The notes beneath the pieces are model-generated. The model did no database searches. It worked only from the letters and a program-made list of their open reading frames with translations, and was not told the origin of the DNA. Both the position numbers and the translations under genes were made by a program. DNA of 64,000 bases, taken from assembly GCA_965113315.1 (NCBI GenBank), contig OZ220364.1. One strand, given 5' to 3'. Source of the DNA: Podarcis vaucheri (Eukaryota). The stretch's first letter is position 1. The number at the start of each line of letters is the position of its first letter. Of the stretch, positions 4,207-45,967 are shown in pieces.

Positions 4207-4592
4207 GGGAGAGGGTGCCAATGTGGTCTAAACCACAGAGCCTCTTGGGCTTGCCGATTAGAAGATCGGTGGTTCGATTTCCTGAGACGGGCTGAGCTCC
4301 TGTTGCTCTGTTCCAGTTTCTGTCCACCTAGCAGCTTGAAAGCACACCTGTGCAAGTAAATAAATAGTTACCGCTGCTGCGGAAAGGTAAACGGCGTTTC
4401 CGTGCGCTCTGGCTTCCGTCACGGTGTTCCGTTGTGCCAGAAGCGGTTTAATCATACTGGCCACATGACCTAGAAAGCTATCTGTAGACAAACGCCAGCT
4501 CCCTCAACTGGAAAGCGAGATAAAGTGCTGCACCCAATAGTCACCTTTGACTGGACTTATCCGTTCAGGGGTCCTTTACCTTTTCCTACCTT
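4207..4592 (+). mobile_element. Sauria SINE (Squam1 type), older diverged copy
   Basis: tRNA-like head with GGTTCGA box, core gtgcaagtaaataaatag, (ACCTTT)-type tail, TSD tactga (4201-4206 / 4593-4598). Confidence 0.9.
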
Positions 4593-8577: not shown

Positions 8578-8748
8578 CCCTCCTCGACCTGCTCCGGGAA
8601 CGGTTGACCAGAAAAAGCCTCTCCAGTCGGGATCCTCAAAGATATAGGGTAGGATGCGGGTCAACAGGCGGCTACAGTTCAGGACAATCTGCTTTTCCTT
8701 ATCAGAGTGACAGCCACTCTCAGCTCCCTGCACCAGCTTTTCCACTGC
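8578..8748 (-). CDS. HID1: HID1 coding exon 3 (171 nt)
   Basis: AVEKLVQGAESGCHSDKEKQIVLNCSRLLTRILPYIFEDPDWRGFFWSTVPGAGRGG. CAG acceptor 8749-8751, GTATG donor 8573-8577. Confidence 0.97.
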
Positions 8749-9715
8749 CTGAAACAAATAAGGTAAAGCAAATGACAGGAACTGCTGCCATGCAGACACC
8801 AATTATTGCCACAGATAATTCAAGTTTTCAAATGGCTTACTGCAGCAGCAGCAACATTTAATAAATGCATCATTATTTATTATTAGTGCTGGCCTCTGTT
8901 TGAACGTAATAGGTAACATCCAATGTTTCCATCCCATTAGCACAACAGATTTCCATTCGTTTTACAGAACTTGCCCTTCTAGCCCCTTCCCCCACCCAAA
9001 TTTGCTTTTGGAACAGAGTTCGAGGAGGGGGGAAGCAGAGGAAAGGGAAATACTTTTGTGAGCATTTAAATCTGATCATGCAATGCTGTATGTTACCCAA
9101 TACTGAAATCCATCTGAAAAAGACGTTTTTCTGAGAATGTGATAATTTAGTAAAGGGCGGGGGAGAGAAAGGATTTCAAGACTTAGAAGTGTGTAATCAA
9201 AATCTTACTTTCTTCCTTGATCTTGAAAAATGACTGAAGGTTCCACAGATGAATATGCTGCTCTATGAGAAGTGCTCTTAACAAGTGCCAAGCATAATGG
9301 AAGAGGTGGGAAATGTGGATCCAACTGATTTGTAAAGTGTGGGGAGAGAGCATGCCAGATTTCCAAGATAAATACCTGAGATCAAGTTAATATCAATGTT
9401 TTTCAGGAACAAGGTCACTGACTCCAGTATAACCCTACCAGCAGCAGTCCGTGCCAGCTTCTATTTTTGCAATTATCTGATATTCCCAGATACATTTTTA
9501 GTGGAGGGAGAAAAGCTTTGGTCTGCAGTATGGTATGCATTACTCTTGAAAATGAACTCATATTTGAATTGGAAATGCAAAGTACATTTTGAGGATCAAT
9601 ATGCCACTTCCAGCTCTTGGAGAACTATCAGAAATTGTTTAACATGGCTGCTCACATAGTTTGAATAGCATGTATCCAGCCCAGTGATTTGCAAGGTATG
9701 TAAAGTCATATTAAA

Positions 9716-10069
9716 GGGACGCGAGTGGCACTGTGGGTTAAACCACAGAGCCTAGGACTTGCCGATCAGAAGGTTGGCGGTTCAAATTCCCGTGATGGGG
9801 TGAGCTCCCATTGTTCAGTCCCTGCTCCTGCCAACCTAGCAGTTCGAAAGCACGTCAAAGTGCAAATAGATAAATAGGTACCGCTCCGGCGGGAAGGTAA
9901 ACTGTGTTTCCATGTGCTGCTCTGGTTCGCCAGAAGTGGCTTAGTCATGCTGGCCACAAGACCCGGAAGCTGTACGCCGGCTCCCTCAGCCAATAAAGCG
10001 AGATGAGCGCCGCAACCCCAGAGTCGGTCACGACTGGACCTAATGGTCAGGGGTCCCTTTACTTTACCT
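9716..10069 (+). mobile_element. Sauria SINE, full length
   Basis: GGGACGCG head, conserved body, ACCTTT tail; perfect 15-bp TSD taaagtcatattaaa (9701-9715 / 10070-10084). Confidence 0.95.
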
Positions 10070-10709
10070 TAAAGTCATATTAAACAGAGTGCTCTGCAGG
10101 TAAATACTGCATAGCGGACTAGCAATAGTCCAATCTACAAGTATTGGTGGTACAGTAGATGCAAATAGGTTCCTCTTTCCTCCGTTTACCAAAGAGTAAA
10201 AGAAGAGGGGAAACCTCATACATTAAAAGTATTTTCAATGTCTGAACGACATTCCAGACTAGAGCAGTTGAAGTTCCTATTGCTGAATATGGGAGAACTC
10301 TCCTAGGATGCATCTTAGTGGTATGCAAATATCATAATATTCTACTGTGCCACATACACGTACAGAAAAAAGACAGACCCGCTTGCTTATTTTCTACACC
10401 TGAAAGCAAGAAACTACAAATTTGATGCATATCCCCTGTCCACGACACCCTTGTGCTGTTAAAGTCTTCTCTGTTAGACAGAGAATTACAAATATTCTGC
10501 TATAATGAGTAAGAAAACCTAAACAAGAAGAGATAAAACCAAAGTCTTTAACAACCGCTTCAACTTATAATGCAAGGGATTAAACAAGATGGAATAATAC
10601 AAAGGGCATTTTTATAAATACTGAACTTGCTCTGGGGCACAATTTTCTGAGGTAGGAAGTGATGTTTGTTTATTTAAGGAATGCATTCCCTGCTTTGCAA
10701 TATATGTCT

Positions 10710-10879
10710 NNNNNNNNNNNNNNNNNNNNNNNNNNNNNNNNNNNNNNNNNNNNNNNNNNNNNNNNNNNNNNNNNNNNNNNNNNNNNNNNNNNNNNNNNNN
10801 NNNNNNNNNNNNNNNNNNNNNNNNNNNNNNNNNNNNNNNNNNNNNNNNNNNNNNNNNNNNNNNNNNNNNNNNNNNNNNN
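10710..10879. other. Assembly gap (170 N)
   Basis: Run of N in HID1 intron 2. Confidence 1.
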
Positions 10880-11547
10880 TGGAAATATTACAGCAACATT
10901 CATAGTGCCTGGGCCTCCTGAAATAAAACTGCTTTAACCTGCAAGATGGCCCTCCTTCAGGAGACACAAGCAATTTACTAAAAAAGCAAGTTCTCACTTG
11001 TTTTCCTTTTCACCAGTTTCTAACTTGTTTTCCTTTTCACCAATATCATTCCCTCATCACTACATCATGTTCAGAACTAGAAAAGCATTTCCAGCAGCAT
11101 TTTTTCTAGCCTCTGAGCGATCAGGTACAAGGAGTTTTTCATTCGTGGTAATGATGATGACCATTTCTTTTCCAAAACATTTTAGGGGGAGGCTGGAAGC
11201 GCAGCCACTGCTCTTCAGCAGGCATTTCCTTTTTCTCTGGAGAAAACCTCTGGGACCATCCAAAGGCATTCTAAGGAAAGTGAGGGAAGAAGGCTAGGTG
11301 GCTGAATGCCCAGCACCAAACGTTTAAAAATAGTTCTTAAACCTAATTTAAAAATAATAATAAAAATTGGGAGGGGCAGGGGGTCTCGGTCCAAGAACAC
11401 TATGCTGCCTGCAGACACCACATGGGGGACTCCAGGCTTAAAAGAACAGGAGAGTCCCTATAATGGGATTCAGAGGCATAATTGAGGTCACATCTAGTTT
11501 GACCCTTAGGTCTGCTTTCCTGGGGAGGGTTAGAAAGATGGTATTCT

Positions 11548-11647
11548 GGGACAGCTTAGCCTAGCGGTTACTTCGGAGCAATCTTTGCAGATTCACCAAT
11601 TGCTTAACGGCAGTTCGATACCCTGCAGGCGCTGTCTGGCTTTTTTT
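11548..11647 (+). ncRNA. VTRNA: Vault RNA-like sequence, apparently a retroposed copy (antisense in HID1 intron 2)
   Basis: Box A with vault signature TAGCCTAGCGGTTACTTCG (11557-11575); box B with signature AGTTCGATACCCTGCAGGCGCT (11612-11633); terminal stem GGACAGC/GCTGTCT; T7 at 11641-11647; ~100 nt long; A-rich tail and TSD (11532-11547 / 11698-11713). Confidence 0.88.
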
Positions 11648-11656
11648 AAAAAAGAA

Positions 11657-11704
<48 letters not shown>

Positions 11705-11705
11705 A
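11648..11705 (+). repeat. (GAAA)n microsatellite grown from the A-rich tail
   Basis: A6 followed by about 12 GAAA units directly after the vault-like sequence. Confidence 0.95.
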
Positions 11706-12238
11706 GGTATTCTAAAATTCACCTGGTAAATGTAACTCCTGAGCACACTTAAACTAGCAAAGGTCTGTCTGATTCTTTGATCATATGTACCAAGTATCTA
11801 CAGTTGAAATACATGGGAGCTTTATAGCTGGAATTCAGATTATTGCACTCTTATTCTTGCCTTGCAGGCTACTGCTGTCCAAGACTGATTGCCATAGTTA
11901 ATCCTGTTGAAGTTTAACTACAGCTTTCATGTTTGCCTACCCTGCAGGGTATTGGTGGTTTGATACTATTTCCTCTTCCAGATTACCATAAACCTCAGCT
12001 AACAATGAATCTACTGAAGTATCTTTCTATGCCTTGGTGCTAATTTAGGATTGTTTGGAATTATGGAGTCGTTTCAAAAACTGTACATTCCCTGTGATCA
12101 GGGGTCTCTACTTAAGAGTGACGGACATCTCATTCTGGATTGGTTTACCTTCAGCCAATTGTCCCCCTTTGAATGAGCTAATGTTTGACTAATTGAATTT
12201 CACAGCGGGGACAATACAGGAAGAATAATGCCTTTTAC

Positions 12239-12388
12239 CTTATAACACAAAGTAGCCAAATTTGAAGGAGATTCTTCCCTCACAGCTCTGATTTCTGCAG
12301 CAGGAACAAGAGCAAAAACATCTTGGACTGAAGTAGCTGTATCTGCCCAGAACTGGTCCCAGAACGCATCATCTGTTGCTTCTACAGG
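12239..12388 (-). CDS. HID1: HID1 coding exon 2 (150 nt)
   Basis: PVEATDDAFWDQFWADTATSVQDVFALVPAAEIRAVREESPSNLATLCYK. CAG acceptor 12389-12391, GT donor 12237-12238. Confidence 0.97.
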
Positions 12389-29459: not shown

Positions 29460-29762
29460 CAGTGGTGCCCCGCAAGACGAATGCCTCGCAAGACGAAAAA
29501 CCCGCTAGACGAAAGGGTTTTCCGTTTTTCGATGCACTTCGCAAGACGAATTTCCCTATGGGCTTGCTTCGCAAGACGAAAACGTCTTGCGAGTCCTGCG
29601 ATTTTTTTCACTCCCCCCCTTTTTCTATGCCGCTAAATGGCCGCTAAACCGCTAATAGCGCTAATCCACTAAGCCGCTAATGGGGTTGCTTCGCAAGACG
29701 AAAAAACCGCTAGACGAAGAGACTCACGGAACGGATTATTTTCGTCTTGCGAGGCACCACAT
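29460..29762. mobile_element. Tc1/mariner (Tigger/pogo-like) MITE
   Basis: TIRs CAGTGGTGCCCCGCAAGACGAA / TTCGTCTTGCGAGGCACCAC, TA flanks, internal CGCAAGACGAA repeats, CpG-rich. Confidence 0.88.
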
Positions 29763-39674: not shown

Positions 39675-40051
39675 AAAGGTAAAGACCTTAAAATTCTTAT
39701 AAGAAAAGGTACCCTTGACCGTTAGGTCCAGTTGCGGATGACTCTGGGGTTGTGTGCTCATCTCGCTCTGTAGGCCGAGGGAGCCGGCGTTTGTCTGCAG
39801 ACAGCTTCCGGGTCATGTGGCCAGCATCTGCTTCTGGCGAACCAGAGCAGTGCATGGAAATGCCGTTTACCTTCCCGCCGGAGCAGTACCTATTTATCTA
39901 CTTGCACTTGATGTGCTTTCAAACTGCTAGGTGGGCAGGAGCTGGGACTGAACAATGGGAGCTCACCCCATCGCGGGGATTCAAACTGCTGACCTTCCGA
40001 TCGGCAAGCCCTAGGCTCTGTGGTTTAGACCACAGCACCACCTGCGTCTCC
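39675..40051 (-). mobile_element. Sauria SINE, reverse orientation
   Basis: Reverse complement of the other copies (aaaggtaaag tail, tacctatttatctacttgcac core); flanked by t(t/g)atgtta. Confidence 0.92.
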
Positions 40052-41412: not shown

Positions 41413-41772
41413 GGGACGCGGGTGGCGCTGTGGGTTAAACCACAGAGCCTAGGACTTGCCGATCAGAAGGTCGGCAGTTCGAATCCCTGCGACAGGGTGA
41501 GCTCCCGTTGCTCGGTCCCTGCTCCTGCCAACCTAGCAGTTCGAAAGCACAAAGTGCAAGTAGATAAATAGGTACCGCTCCAGCGGGAAGGTAAATGGCG
41601 TTTCTGTGCGCTGCTCTGGTTCACCAGAAGCAGCTTAGTCATGCTGGCCACATGACCCAGAAGCTGTCTGCAGACAAACGCTGGCTCCCTCGGCCAATAA
41701 AGCGAGATGAGCGCCGCAACGCCAGAGTCGGTCACGACTGGACCTAATGGCCAGGGGTCCCTTTACCTTTTA
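41413..41772 (+). mobile_element. Sauria SINE, young copy
   Basis: Highly similar to 9716-10069 with CpGs retained; TSD ccagtccaagac (41394-41405 / 41773-41784). Confidence 0.95.
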
Positions 41773-42759
41773 CCAGTCCAAGACTGGTTGAAAGATCAAG
41801 ACTCCTGCTGTTCTTTCTTTTCACAGCAGACTGTGAAACCATACAGGTCAAACCTATTCCTACTATGATATGATAGTGCATCTTTCTAAATGTGCATCTC
41901 TCTGTCATTAATCAGCATATGCAACTTTTGAGCAAATCAGTGTCATCTTCCAACTTTCCCTTAGACTTATGCATTTTTTTTTGGCGGTGTGTAACTGGCC
42001 CGCCCTCTGTACAACCTTTGCCCAAAGTGAGCTGAGGTGCAGGGTGCAATTCCAGAAACTGCTGATTTACCAGAAAGGCATTTGGATTCGAGACCTGTTA
42101 ATTCCTATCTGAAGCCTGACATCTACATGTGCGGGGAATAGGGAGGACAGCAGAGGAAGGTGTGTATTTGTGTGGGTGGGTGTCTGGCCTCCTGCTTCTG
42201 CTATAGCAACCAGTTCAGAACAATAGCTCCCCAGAAGCATTACTCATTAAAGTCCAGGGGAACCAGGAGGAAAGGCAGTGATTCAATTAGCACCTCTGTG
42301 GCAGCACTGCCCCCTTTGGCTTCCCAGCAGTGTGGGATAATTAGGACAATTTATCCTACAGCTGCGCTGCCCCAGAGAGACGGGCAGGTGCAGCTGACTC
42401 TTCCTGACACACGAAGGAGTCTATGGCAGCTTGTCCCCCAGGCAGCAGCCACCAACACTCCCAAGTCTTCTCACACGTTCACTGACAAATAGAGGATCAG
42501 ATCAGACAGACAGTGGCAGAGGCAGCTGTGAAGAGTCTGGTGGGAAGAGATGGCTTTGTGCCTCCAGGCTGAGCAGGACTCTTGTCAGGAGCTGGAGATG
42601 GATGAAATGCAGAGGGTTACTCAGTCCTTGAAAAGGACTATAAACCCATTCTCCGCTGGTAGTGCATTGTAAGCGACAAGGCTGACTCTACAAGGCACTG
42701 GACAATGTTGACCTGAATATTCAACATTGGCTTGGAAAAGCTGAGAGTGTAGAATCTTA

Positions 42760-45700
42760 TCAGAGTGAGCTCGTGGCCGTGGGATCCGGCGGGCACCTAG
42801 AGCGACCCCCAAAACGAAGAAGGGATCCCGTAAGGGGCTCCGGAAGCGCGGAGGGGAAGCGGTGCTGTGGATTCATCGCTCTTTCTGCGGGAGTGAAGCC
42901 GCGCGGCTGTTGCGGATGAGCGCCGACCTTTCTTCCTTTTACATTGGATTACAAACCAACTACTCGTGAGTAAGATTTACTCAAAATTGGATTACAAATT
43001 TACGAATTTGGCTGAAAGCGGGAGGCGAGAAAAAGGAAGTCCGTCTCCCGAGGATGCTAGTGATCAAAAGCAAAGATTTGACAAGCTGGAAGCAGTGCGG
43101 AGAGATTTTAAAGTGAGACATCATACGTTCGGAAAAGTCGGAAACTGAAGCAGGCAAGTTACCTTTATTTCCTTGCTATTTTCTGTACCTTATCTGGGGA
43201 CTTTCTCCTCCGCCGGACTTTTTTAAATTTTAAAGACTTTAAAACCCCCAGTCTCGGGCTTGCAGTGGGACAAAAGGCTACTTTGCGGATATACTTATAA
43301 ATTTGAAATGGACACTTAGAGGCATTACTGTTGGATACAATTAAACAACTGTACTTTTGCACCTTTTAAGAAGCTTATGGCAACATTGTGAGAGCTCTGC
43401 TAGAGGGAAAAGGTCTTTTCCAAGGATCAGCGTTAATTTATTTAACTTAAGGAACTTTAATGGCGTCTGAAACTTTGTTTCTTCTTCCCTGAATTGCAAC
43501 TTACTCCCTCTAGTGGAACTTGGGACTTACAATTTCCTGAGAACTAACTTTGCTTTGTCTTTCTGTGGTTGGATTGTTTACGCTTGTGCCTGCCTTTCTC
43601 ATGAAACTTTTGACAGCCTGACCTTGAATCCAAAGACAGGTGTGGAATGAGCGATAAAGTAAAAACAAGAGCTGCGTCGAAGGCAGGGAAAGGCAAACTG
43701 ACACAAACAACCCTGTTTTCTCAGGGACGCAGATCTTCAGTCCCTGCCGTTTTACAGACTGCACCCTCGCCAACAACACCAGCTGAAGAAGCTGAACAAC
43801 CAATAGGTGAGGATATGGCATCTGGAGGATCTAACACTCTTTTAGAGGAAATGTTACAACAATTCGCAATTTTGAACAAAAAAGTGGATGATCAAACTGC
43901 AAAAATTGACTTAGCCACATCTTCAATTACCAAACTTTCAGAACAGGTGGCTAAGCATTCACAGGATATTGGAAACTTAAACGACGTAACATCTGAAAAT
44001 CGAAAATTGGCGGAGGCTGCGATTGGGAAAGCAGAGGCCGCAGCCAAAGGAGTGGAGGAATTGAAAGGAGAGGTAAGACCGCTCCACAAACATATCACAG
44101 ACCAGCAGGCCTACCTGTCTTTGGTGGAACTGCGAAACAGGGAAAATAACCTGAGATTACGCTCTATCCCAGAGATTGAGAAAGAGGATTTGACCGGCTT
44201 TCTAACGGCAGAATTTTCCAAATTCTGGGGTATAAATCAAGACACAGATTTCAAAATAACGACTGCATTTAGATTGGGAAGAGTCGCTGGGAAGGACAGG
44301 CCTAGAGACTGTTTGATTATTTTAAGGACTAAACAGGAGAGAGACAAGCTACTTGATTTACACTTCAATAAAGCACTTGTGATCCAGGATAGAAGAGCAC
44401 AAATTTACAAAGATATTCCCAAACAATTACCGGATCTAAGAGCCAACTACACTGACCTAACTGGACTTCTGAGAGGTAACGGAATACCTTACAGGTGGGA
44501 GTTTCCACAAGGCGTCTTATTTAAATACAAAGGAAAGAAGATAAAAATCAAAACGAAAGAGGATTGCCAGAAGTTCCTACACGATCACGGAGAAGACCTA
44601 CAGAAAGGAGCAGCTATTTGGCCACCACCAGAGTCAGGGAAAGAGTTACCACCTTCGGACTCGGACAAAAAAGAAGACACCCCACAAGACTAACAACAGA
44701 TTGATACAAGATGTCTCTGCAGCTGTATAGTTGGAACATTAATGGCGCGAATTCCCCAGAAAAACGCAAACGGATCTTCCATATCCTAAAGAAAGAGAAC
44801 TTGGACATAATTTGTTTGCAAGAAACCCATGTGACAAGGGCTCACAGGAAGGTGTTAACAAATAAAAGATTAGGCCAAGAATTTATCTCATCAGATAGAG
44901 TCAAGAAGAGAGGCGTGGTGATTTACGCCAAAGAGACTCTTTCACCGAAATTTTTGTTTAAAGATGAACAAGGAAGAATCCTGGCTATTGAGATTTCGAC
45001 CCAAGGAGAGAAAATTTTGATATTAGGAATTTATGCACCAAACGAGGGGAAATCAGAATTTTATAAGAAGCTGCATGAGACATTATTGGACTATCTGGAC
45101 TATTCGAACATCATTATGATGGGAGACATGAATGGGGTTGTCTCTACCTTTATGGATAAGTCACAGAACCAGAATTTGACTAAAGATGGAAGACTACCAA
45201 AAACTTTCTTTGAACTAACTGACAATATGGATTTAATTGACTCATGGAGGACGAGAAACCCCCTCGGTAAAGAAGGAACTTTCTTTTCTGAGGCCCACCT
45301 GTCATGGACAAGGATCGACCAAATTTGGACAACTAGAGGGCTGGCACCTAAGACCACAAAAATAGAAATCTGCCCAAAGACTTGCTCCGACCATAACGCT
45401 TTGAAAATGGAAATGAGATTTACTACTGCCGACTCCTTCAGATGGAAAATGAATGACAACCTGCTAAGAGATCAAGAGATTGTAAAGAAGGCCCAAAAAG
45501 CTTTAAAGGATTATTTTGAAATCAACTTGAACACCTCGGTGGAAAAAAGAATAATCTGGGACGCGAGCAAAGCTGTTATGAGAGGGTTTCTGATACAACA
45601 GAATACGATTAAGAAAAAACTCTGGAATGGTAAAAAGGACAAGATATTGGAGAAGATAAGGGACGGCGAGAAAAAATTAAGATTAAACCCAAAATCCAAA

Positions 45701-45964
45701 GAGACCTTAAGAGAAATTAAATTCCACCAGTCACAATATGCGCAATTGATCAACCAAGAAGTGGAATGGAGAATTAAACAAATGAAACAAAGATCATTTG
45801 AATCGGCGAATAAATGTGGGAAACTGCTAGCTTGGCAGTTGAAAAAGAGACAAAAATTAAACTATGTTACCAATCTAGAAGTTGAAGGAAAGAACATCCA
45901 GAAACCGGGAGAAATTAGAAAGTGTTTCCAGAAATATTTTAAAAAATTGTATACACAAGGACCC
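42760..45964 (+). mobile_element. L1-clade LINE, 5' half only (5'UTR, ORF1, endonuclease part of ORF2)
   Basis: CpG-rich 5'UTR, two tandem ORFs 17 nt apart, A-rich sense strand. The 5' boundary is approximate and no TSD was found. Confidence 0.92.
43647..44693 (+). CDS. L1-type ORF1p (coiled coil, RRM, CTD), 348 aa, uninterrupted
   Basis: Heptad coiled coil, ELRNRENNLRLRSIPE motif, AFRLG..PR and IYKDIP...GIPYRWEFP, all typical of L1/Tx1 ORF1. Confidence 0.9.
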   Translation: MSDKVKTRAASKAGKGKLTQTTLFSQGRRSSVPAVLQTAPSPTTPAEEAEQPIGEDMASGGSNTLLEEMLQQFAILNKKVDDQTAKIDLATSSITKLSEQVAKHSQDIGNLNDVTSENRKLAEAAIGKAEAAAKGVEELKGEVRPLHKHITDQQAYLSLVELRNRENNLRLRSIPEIEKEDLTGFLTAEFSKFWGINQDTDFKITTAFRLGRVAGKDRPRDCLIILRTKQERDKLLDLHFNKALVIQDRRAQIYKDIPKQLPDLRANYTDLTGLLRGNGIPYRWEFPQGVLFKYKGKKIKIKTKEDCQKFLHDHGEDLQKGAAIWPPPESGKELPPSDSDKKEDTPQD

Positions 45965-45967
45965 TAG
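44711..45967 (+). CDS. L1-type ORF2, truncated: APE endonuclease plus following region, no RT (418 aa)
   Basis: SWNING, LQETH, IYAPN, GDMN, RIDQ, SDHN motifs all present, then WDASKAVMRG. The stop TAG coincides with the first bases of a SINE. Confidence 0.92.
   Translation: MSLQLYSWNINGANSPEKRKRIFHILKKENLDIICLQETHVTRAHRKVLTNKRLGQEFISSDRVKKRGVVIYAKETLSPKFLFKDEQGRILAIEISTQGEKILILGIYAPNEGKSEFYKKLHETLLDYLDYSNIIMMGDMNGVVSTFMDKSQNQNLTKDGRLPKTFFELTDNMDLIDSWRTRNPLGKEGTFFSEAHLSWTRIDQIWTTRGLAPKTTKIEICPKTCSDHNALKMEMRFTTADSFRWKMNDNLLRDQEIVKKAQKALKDYFEINLNTSVEKRIIWDASKAVMRGFLIQQNTIKKKLWNGKKDKILEKIRDGEKKLRLNPKSKETLREIKFHQSQYAQLINQEVEWRIKQMKQRSFESANKCGKLLAWQLKKRQKLNYVTNLEVEGKNIQKPGEIRKCFQKYFKKLYTQGP

Follow-up and report, generated by a model that had tools for sequence, protein, structure and literature searches.

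Introduction

Retrocopies of vault RNA that carry a target-site duplication and a poly(A) tail have been described in human (PMC11727581), and VTRNA2-2P and VTRNA3-1P are given as human vault retrocopies (PMC10491885; PMC7058938). Vault genes are reported to use upstream elements besides their internal boxes, and a CRE-like element is described at all transcribed human vault paralogues and is missing at the human vault pseudogenes, which are silent (PMC7058938) and have closed chromatin (PMC8287541). In gnathostomes, most functional vault genes are reported to lie upstream of the protocadherin cluster (PMC10491885), and one table gives nine vault matches in human and two in chicken (PMC4378963). 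For U6 of Anolis, 192 matches are reported, about 40 of which were analysed, and the table in that study gives only chimeric and 3′-truncated copies and no poly(A)-type (PMC4476161). Lizards are also described as the sole non-mammal group with tailless retropseudogenes, which was read as a sign of a relaxed L1 (PMC5322556). We found neither lizard vault copies nor a vault-derived SINE in the literature, and the supplements of PMC11727581 may list other species.

Here, we analysed a 64-kb stretch of lizard DNA (the window). Our reading, to which we give a probability of roughly 70% on sequence comparison, is that intron 2 of HID1 holds a full-length vault RNA copy that is likely L1-made, likely silent and one of probably tens of copies.

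A full-length vault RNA unit inside HID1

An initial annotation of the window had recognized a vault RNA by its motifs. The covariance-model search bears this identity out, since 11548-11646 matches Rfam RF00006 (Vault) over the whole model (positions 1-99 of 99) with 62.5 bits, compared to a gathering threshold of 34 (E = 1e-11). This was the only gathering-level Rfam match in the 64-kb window, and one of the seven matches at E ≤ 1 in the window-wide search was a vault match, which fell on the same unit. The match begins at model position 1, directly behind the 5′ copy of a target-site duplication, and the full-length vault RNA copy occupies 11548-11647 on the plus strand.

The positions proposed earlier for the two boxes, the blocks that follow them, the T7 run, the tail and the flanking repeats were all confirmed in the sequence. 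The Pol III box A (11557-11567, plus strand) fits its consensus and falls in the 5′ block that is conserved in the Rfam alignment, with an octamer next to it at 11568-11575. Box B (11612-11622, plus strand) is followed by an 11-mer at 11623-11633, and the T7 run, a Pol III terminator, lies at 11641-11647 (plus strand), upstream of the tail. Box B has an intact core, but misses the strict consensus at its first base, which is A and not G; no letter other than A was seen at 11612 among 40 of the 54 variant rows, and A may be the norm at this base in this lineage. Most human vault and Y transcripts are reported to end in three to five U (PMC5137419), fewer than the seven T of this run. The unit had also been called CpG-retaining, which holds for the five CpGs that are left (observed/expected 0.74, compared to 0.19 in the flanks), but two more appear decayed in comparison with other copies.

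The predicted fold of the unit is unremarkable (z = -1.26; 18 of 200 shuffles fold equally well), and folding by itself is no evidence. All eight pairs of the inner helix are formed. The 7-bp terminal stem named in the initial annotation is present in the predicted fold, but it is not the terminal stem of Rfam. With A at 11551, the Rfam terminal helix keeps five of its six pairs in the window allele, and this lets the shifted 7-bp stem win, with pair probabilities of 0.9-1.0 compared to 0.0. This A moves the stem off the Rfam register, and the 7-bp stem was rejected as a sign of intactness. Taken together, the lizard copy is the same as the RF00006 family in the whole-model match, both boxes, the inner helix and the terminator, but differs in its place in a HID1 intron, its retroposition marks, the missing TATA upstream and the terminal stem that is shifted in this allele.

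HID1 lies on the minus strand, with exons 1-3 at about 20087-20022, 12388-12239 and 8748-8578. The host intron is bordered upstream by exon 2 (12239-12388, minus strand; Pfam Hid1, E = 3.7e-15) and downstream by exon 3 (8578-8748, minus strand, with approximate edges; Pfam Hid1, E = 3.7e-11), so the earlier placement of the unit in intron 2, antisense to HID1, agrees with the exons and the Pfam matches at two of them. About 525 bases separate the element from the donor site of exon 2. This location is outside the protocadherin/ZMAT2 and TGFBI-SMAD5 loci, and in its locus the copy differs from a functional vault gene. In the same intron, an assembly gap of 170 N is found at 10710-10879, 650 bases from the vault element. 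No tRNA genes were found in the 64-kb window. Farther along, an open frame of 306 aa at 54416-55336 (plus strand) encodes a coiled-coil protein with a weak Pfam match; it is probably the last exon of a neighbouring gene and is presumably CDR2L-like.

The unit carries the marks of retroposition

The 5′ copy of the target-site duplication (11532-11547, plus strand) starts at TT/AGAA, one mismatch away from the L1 consensus TT/AAAA, and the 3′ copy (11698-11713, plus strand) is identical to it at 15 of 16 bases. Ahead of the 3′ copy lies an A-rich tail (11648-11697, plus strand) that has turned into a (GAAA)n microsatellite. Since the GAAA array spans 11651-11705 and overlaps the first half of the 3′ repeat, only the last eight bases of this repeat are independent of the tail; these eight match exactly, and the duplication abuts both junctions. 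Pairs of 16-mers that match at 15 or more positions and lie 100-400 nt apart gave seven rows at four places in the window, one of which is the vault unit and another the target-site duplication that flanks a SINE, likewise in intron 2; a random-pair test gave 1.9e-5, but this value recovers merely the duplication itself. The further 15/16 direct repeats 100-400 bases apart, at 60681-60800 and 29466-29710, are possible small insertions or repeat remnants.

No LINE-derived 3′ segment was found between the unit and the tail. The body is confined to the vault RNA, parental flank is absent, and the flanks of other copies differ. The proposed origin by retroposition is therefore upheld by the duplication, the tail, the whole-model match and the foreign flanks of the other copies. 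A native or DNA-duplicated vault gene with coincidental flanking repeats would be expected to keep its full terminator, as this copy does, and half of the 3′ repeat could stem from the microsatellite. Such an origin is nevertheless extremely improbable, because eight independent bases are exact at both junctions within a match that extends to 15/16, no flank is held in common with other copies, and functional vault genes of gnathostomes are reported for the most part upstream of the protocadherin cluster (PMC10491885).

For the retrocopy, we propose the following course. A Pol III vault transcript ending in a U run would have gained an A tail, either because it was adenylated without a template or because a template switch from an L1 poly(A) supplied it. 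Pol III RNAs in human cells are reported to be mostly monoadenylated (PMC12811392) and vault RNAs to be uridylated (PMC5137419), and either modification could have contributed to the U-then-A end; the T run of the copy was found at other loci as well, which suggests that it was templated. L1 ORF2p, the presumed enzyme, would then have nicked the bottom strand at TT/AGAA and copied the RNA up to its first base, which would account for the 16-bp duplication and the other hallmarks seen at the site. Slippage may then have converted the tail into (GAAA)n, with the AGAAAG at the start of the target site as the probable seed. Severed from the upstream elements of its parent, the copy would have decayed as a putatively neutral and silent sequence, and changes of this kind are present in it.

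The age of the insertion was assessed with contigs of four out of 24 listed public runs, which were aligned to 11060-11664 at 80% likeness, so that copies less than 80% alike are invisible. Three runs are DNA (X4 from organism A, X2 from organism B and X11 from organism D), and X16, also from organism D, is of a guessed RNA type. The 5′ junction is bridged by the one X16 contig, which runs at a depth of 2.3 from the flank into the unit with 133 and 53 letters on the two sides and 2 other letters, and which informs on the junction and not on expression. An X11 contig reaches the junction with 118 and 29 letters, below the 31-letter bridging rule, and an X4 contig extends 7 letters into the unit across it; an X4 piece also runs from the unit into the same tail. 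The filled 5′ junction was thus seen over varying length in three of the four runs, and X2 is without cover at 11522-11542. Its recurrence in other samples indicates that the insertion is no assembly artefact and is not brand new, and since the junction is shared, the insertion predates alleles that depart from the window at up to 11 of 447 flank bases. There was no empty allele among 18 of the 63 loose ends, where the stretch compared (11060-11664) is the left flank and the unit. The view that the insertion is fairly recent can be granted in part only, since its 5′ junction is common to samples under two species labels and changes have gathered in the copy.

L1 is the likely source of the machinery

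A tail, a target-site duplication and an L1-type cleavage site are described as hallmarks of L1 (PMC4476161; PMC13295347). On the duplication, the tail and the TT/AGAA site, the L1-mediated insertion proposed earlier is likely, but the enzyme itself is presumed. The site fits TT/AAAA at five of six positions, and 1.2% of window positions fit within one mismatch. L1 is not the only candidate, as several LINE clades occur in lizards. In Anolis, chimeras of U6 with L1, L2 and RTE have been reported (PMC4476161).

The window also contains an L1-clade element at 43614-45967 (plus strand), whose ORF1-like frame is open over 359 aa and whose ORF2 is represented by 420 aa. The N-terminus of this ORF2, which covers the endonuclease and the next region, matches human LINE-1 ORF2p with E = 4e-54; the frame stops at 45967, where unrelated SINE-like sequence starts. 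No Pfam or PDB match was found for the ORF ahead of the endonuclease. In the same HID1 intron as the vault unit, a Sauria-SINE-like insertion was found at about 9716-10068, within 9701-10084 (plus strand), with a 15-bp duplication that starts with T and has TTT 13 bases upstream; its tail type and T-started duplication are those given for Sauria SINEs (PMC13295347) and point to a squamate host. Four more Sauria-SINE-like copies lie at about 4215-4582, 39701-40048, 41413-41774 and 51915-52276 and are 71-88% identical.

These SINEs bear on whether the same silent retrocopy could owe its origin to another LINE; the most plausible would be Bov-B/RTE, whose activity in lizards is very high. Bov-B duplications are described as starting with A after T and having three T about ten bases upstream (PMC13295347). 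The vault insertion has the T/A start and, at this one site, TTT at 16-14 bases upstream of the duplication; the five Sauria-SINE-like copies suggest that the machinery has been active, and U6 chimeras with L2 and RTE are known from Anolis. However, the TTT lies three bases beyond its place at the neighbouring SINE (-13) and departs by about 4-6 bases from the described spacing, the site fits TT/AAAA at five of six positions, the tail is A-rich and not (CAA)n or (ACCTTT)n, and no LINE 3′ segment is attached. Bov-B/RTE is an unlikely maker of the copy, although its signature is missed by just a few bases at this site, and L1 is the preferred one.

Vault copies probably number in the tens and form at least two types

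In the three DNA runs, 47, 30 and 31 contigs were aligned. Among 25 of the 113 pieces, nine span at least 89 bases of the unit and differ from it at 6-18 letters; eight of these near-full-length pieces bear at least 20 letters of foreign flank. Relative to the flank, the summed depth over the unit was 8.5-33 times as high in X4 and 4-15 times as high in X11. These values give an order of magnitude only, because contig depths that are added up do not equal a number of copies and are inflated by overlapping contigs. On this basis, the vault copies in these genomes probably number in the tens. Other loci in X2 and X11 align through the T run (11647-11648) and then continue into sequence other than a tail, which makes them candidate vault genes. 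At two other loci, an A-rich tail is followed by foreign sequence (behind 11663 in X2 and behind 11653 in X4), and these are candidate retrocopies. Two stretches of the flank, 11488-11520 and 11333-11395, also match other loci, as seen from loose ends in X11 and X2 and from raised depth, and are perhaps the remains of older repeats.

A second sequence type was found in all three DNA runs, in which the variable loop differs at 11578, 11580, 11582, 11583, 11592 and 11597; it makes up about 20-64% of the depth at 11578 in X4, X2 and X11. Since this different variable loop (11575-11600) recurs in all three DNA runs, at least two types of vault paralogue, with copies of each, are probably present in these lizards.

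The initial annotation had also raised the idea of a vault-derived SINE-like family, which is not supported: the copies exceed one or two, yet the number indicated is in the tens, and the terminator lies ahead of the tail. Like small-RNA-derived SINEs (PMC3531059), the vault unit is short, interspersed, LINE-dependent and tailed and contains internal Pol III boxes, and other A-tailed copies are present, as would be expected if it belonged to a SINE family whose members give rise to new copies. SINEBase, however, requires at least 100 copies (PMC3531059), and this number was not reached with 30-47 contigs per run at 80% likeness, a rough measure, since contigs can be filtered, and with depths of 4-33 times the flank. 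The 64-kb window has one vault copy compared to five of a true SINE, and the unit differs from small-RNA-derived SINEs in having no body module and its terminator before the tail, so that its transcript would be tail-less and would not be expected to spread like a SINE. In addition, the distinctive letters of the window copy are in the minority and give no shared subfamily mark. Membership in such a family is therefore very unlikely, and a low-copy set of retrocopies is preferred.

The copy has changed since insertion

The distinctive letters of the window copy are minority letters among the copies. At 11622, T makes up 48-92% of the contig depth, and the window differs. At two CpG positions, the window has T at 11624, where C makes up 70-82% of the depth in three runs, and A at 11627, where G makes up 63-100%. 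These CpG-type changes leave the inner helix fully paired, and transitions in such helix pairs often keep pairing. At 11551, the A of the window is unpaired in the Rfam stem, while the X16 allele of the same locus has C, which pairs; C also makes up all of the X2 depth. The X11 allele probably keeps the canonical terminal pair, and the X4 allele, all 11 other letters of which fall in the flank, seems to carry the A as well. As the A at 11551 is allele-specific, the 7-bp stem noted above is the product of a change after insertion.

The copy is likely silent

Intact internal boxes are insufficient for transcription, as the silent vault pseudogenes of humans are reported to be without the upstream elements (PMC7058938). 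No TATA-like or TRE motif was found within 100 bases upstream of the lizard unit. A CRE-like octamer with one mismatch to the CRE consensus lies at 11483-11490 (plus strand), at -65 and outside both the insertion and the duplication. Such octamers occur 13 times in the 64 kb, and 0.8% of 40-base stretches hold one; the observation was made post hoc.

It is conceivable that this chance site replaces the element of the parent, so that the copy would be a transcribed vault retrogene whose putative vault-sized RNA is antisense to HID1 pre-mRNA. The intact boxes and T7 run, the fully paired inner helix and the X16 and probably X11 alleles with the canonical terminal pair at 11551 are in keeping with this, as is the CRE-like octamer, since a CRE-like element is the mark of transcribed human vault genes (PMC7058938). 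But the octamer was picked out post hoc, TATA and TRE motifs are missing upstream, the CpG-type decay suggests methylation, and in the window allele the Rfam terminal stem no longer forms (pair probabilities of 0.0). We regard transcription as quite improbable, with the octamer at -65 as the reason for giving it any weight, and consider the copy likely silent.

Discussion

The best reading of the locus is a well-formed processed vault pseudogene in a low-copy family, a kind already described in humans. It is the same as the human vault retrocopies in having a body away from the conserved loci, a tail, a duplication, retrotransposon machinery as its source and no upstream promoter of the parent. 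It differs in its squamate host, in apparently more copies and two sequence types, and in a tail turned into (GAAA)n, a full T7 run that was kept and a CRE-like octamer upstream. With the polyadenylated snRNA pseudogenes (PMC4476161), the copy has in common the small RNA body, the A-rich tract, the duplication, the L1-type site and the low copy number, but its source is a vault RNA with internal boxes, and poly(A)-type copies are absent from the Anolis U6 table of that study.

There is a slim chance that lizards repeatedly retropose two vault types and that this copy is Pol III-transcribed, which would make it a new putative vault gene inside HID1. If so, it would be a live example of a second vault locus arising by retroposition, and if it is transcribed via the chance CRE-like site, it would offer a direct test of whether the upstream element decides which vault copies live.

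As a silent copy, the insertion matters little by itself, and it could serve as a presence/absence marker. The two vault types and the probably tens of copies are of some help in the annotation of vault genes in lizards. A silent copy also supports the view that the L1 system of lizards copies cellular small RNAs, and it extends vault retroposition from humans to squamates.
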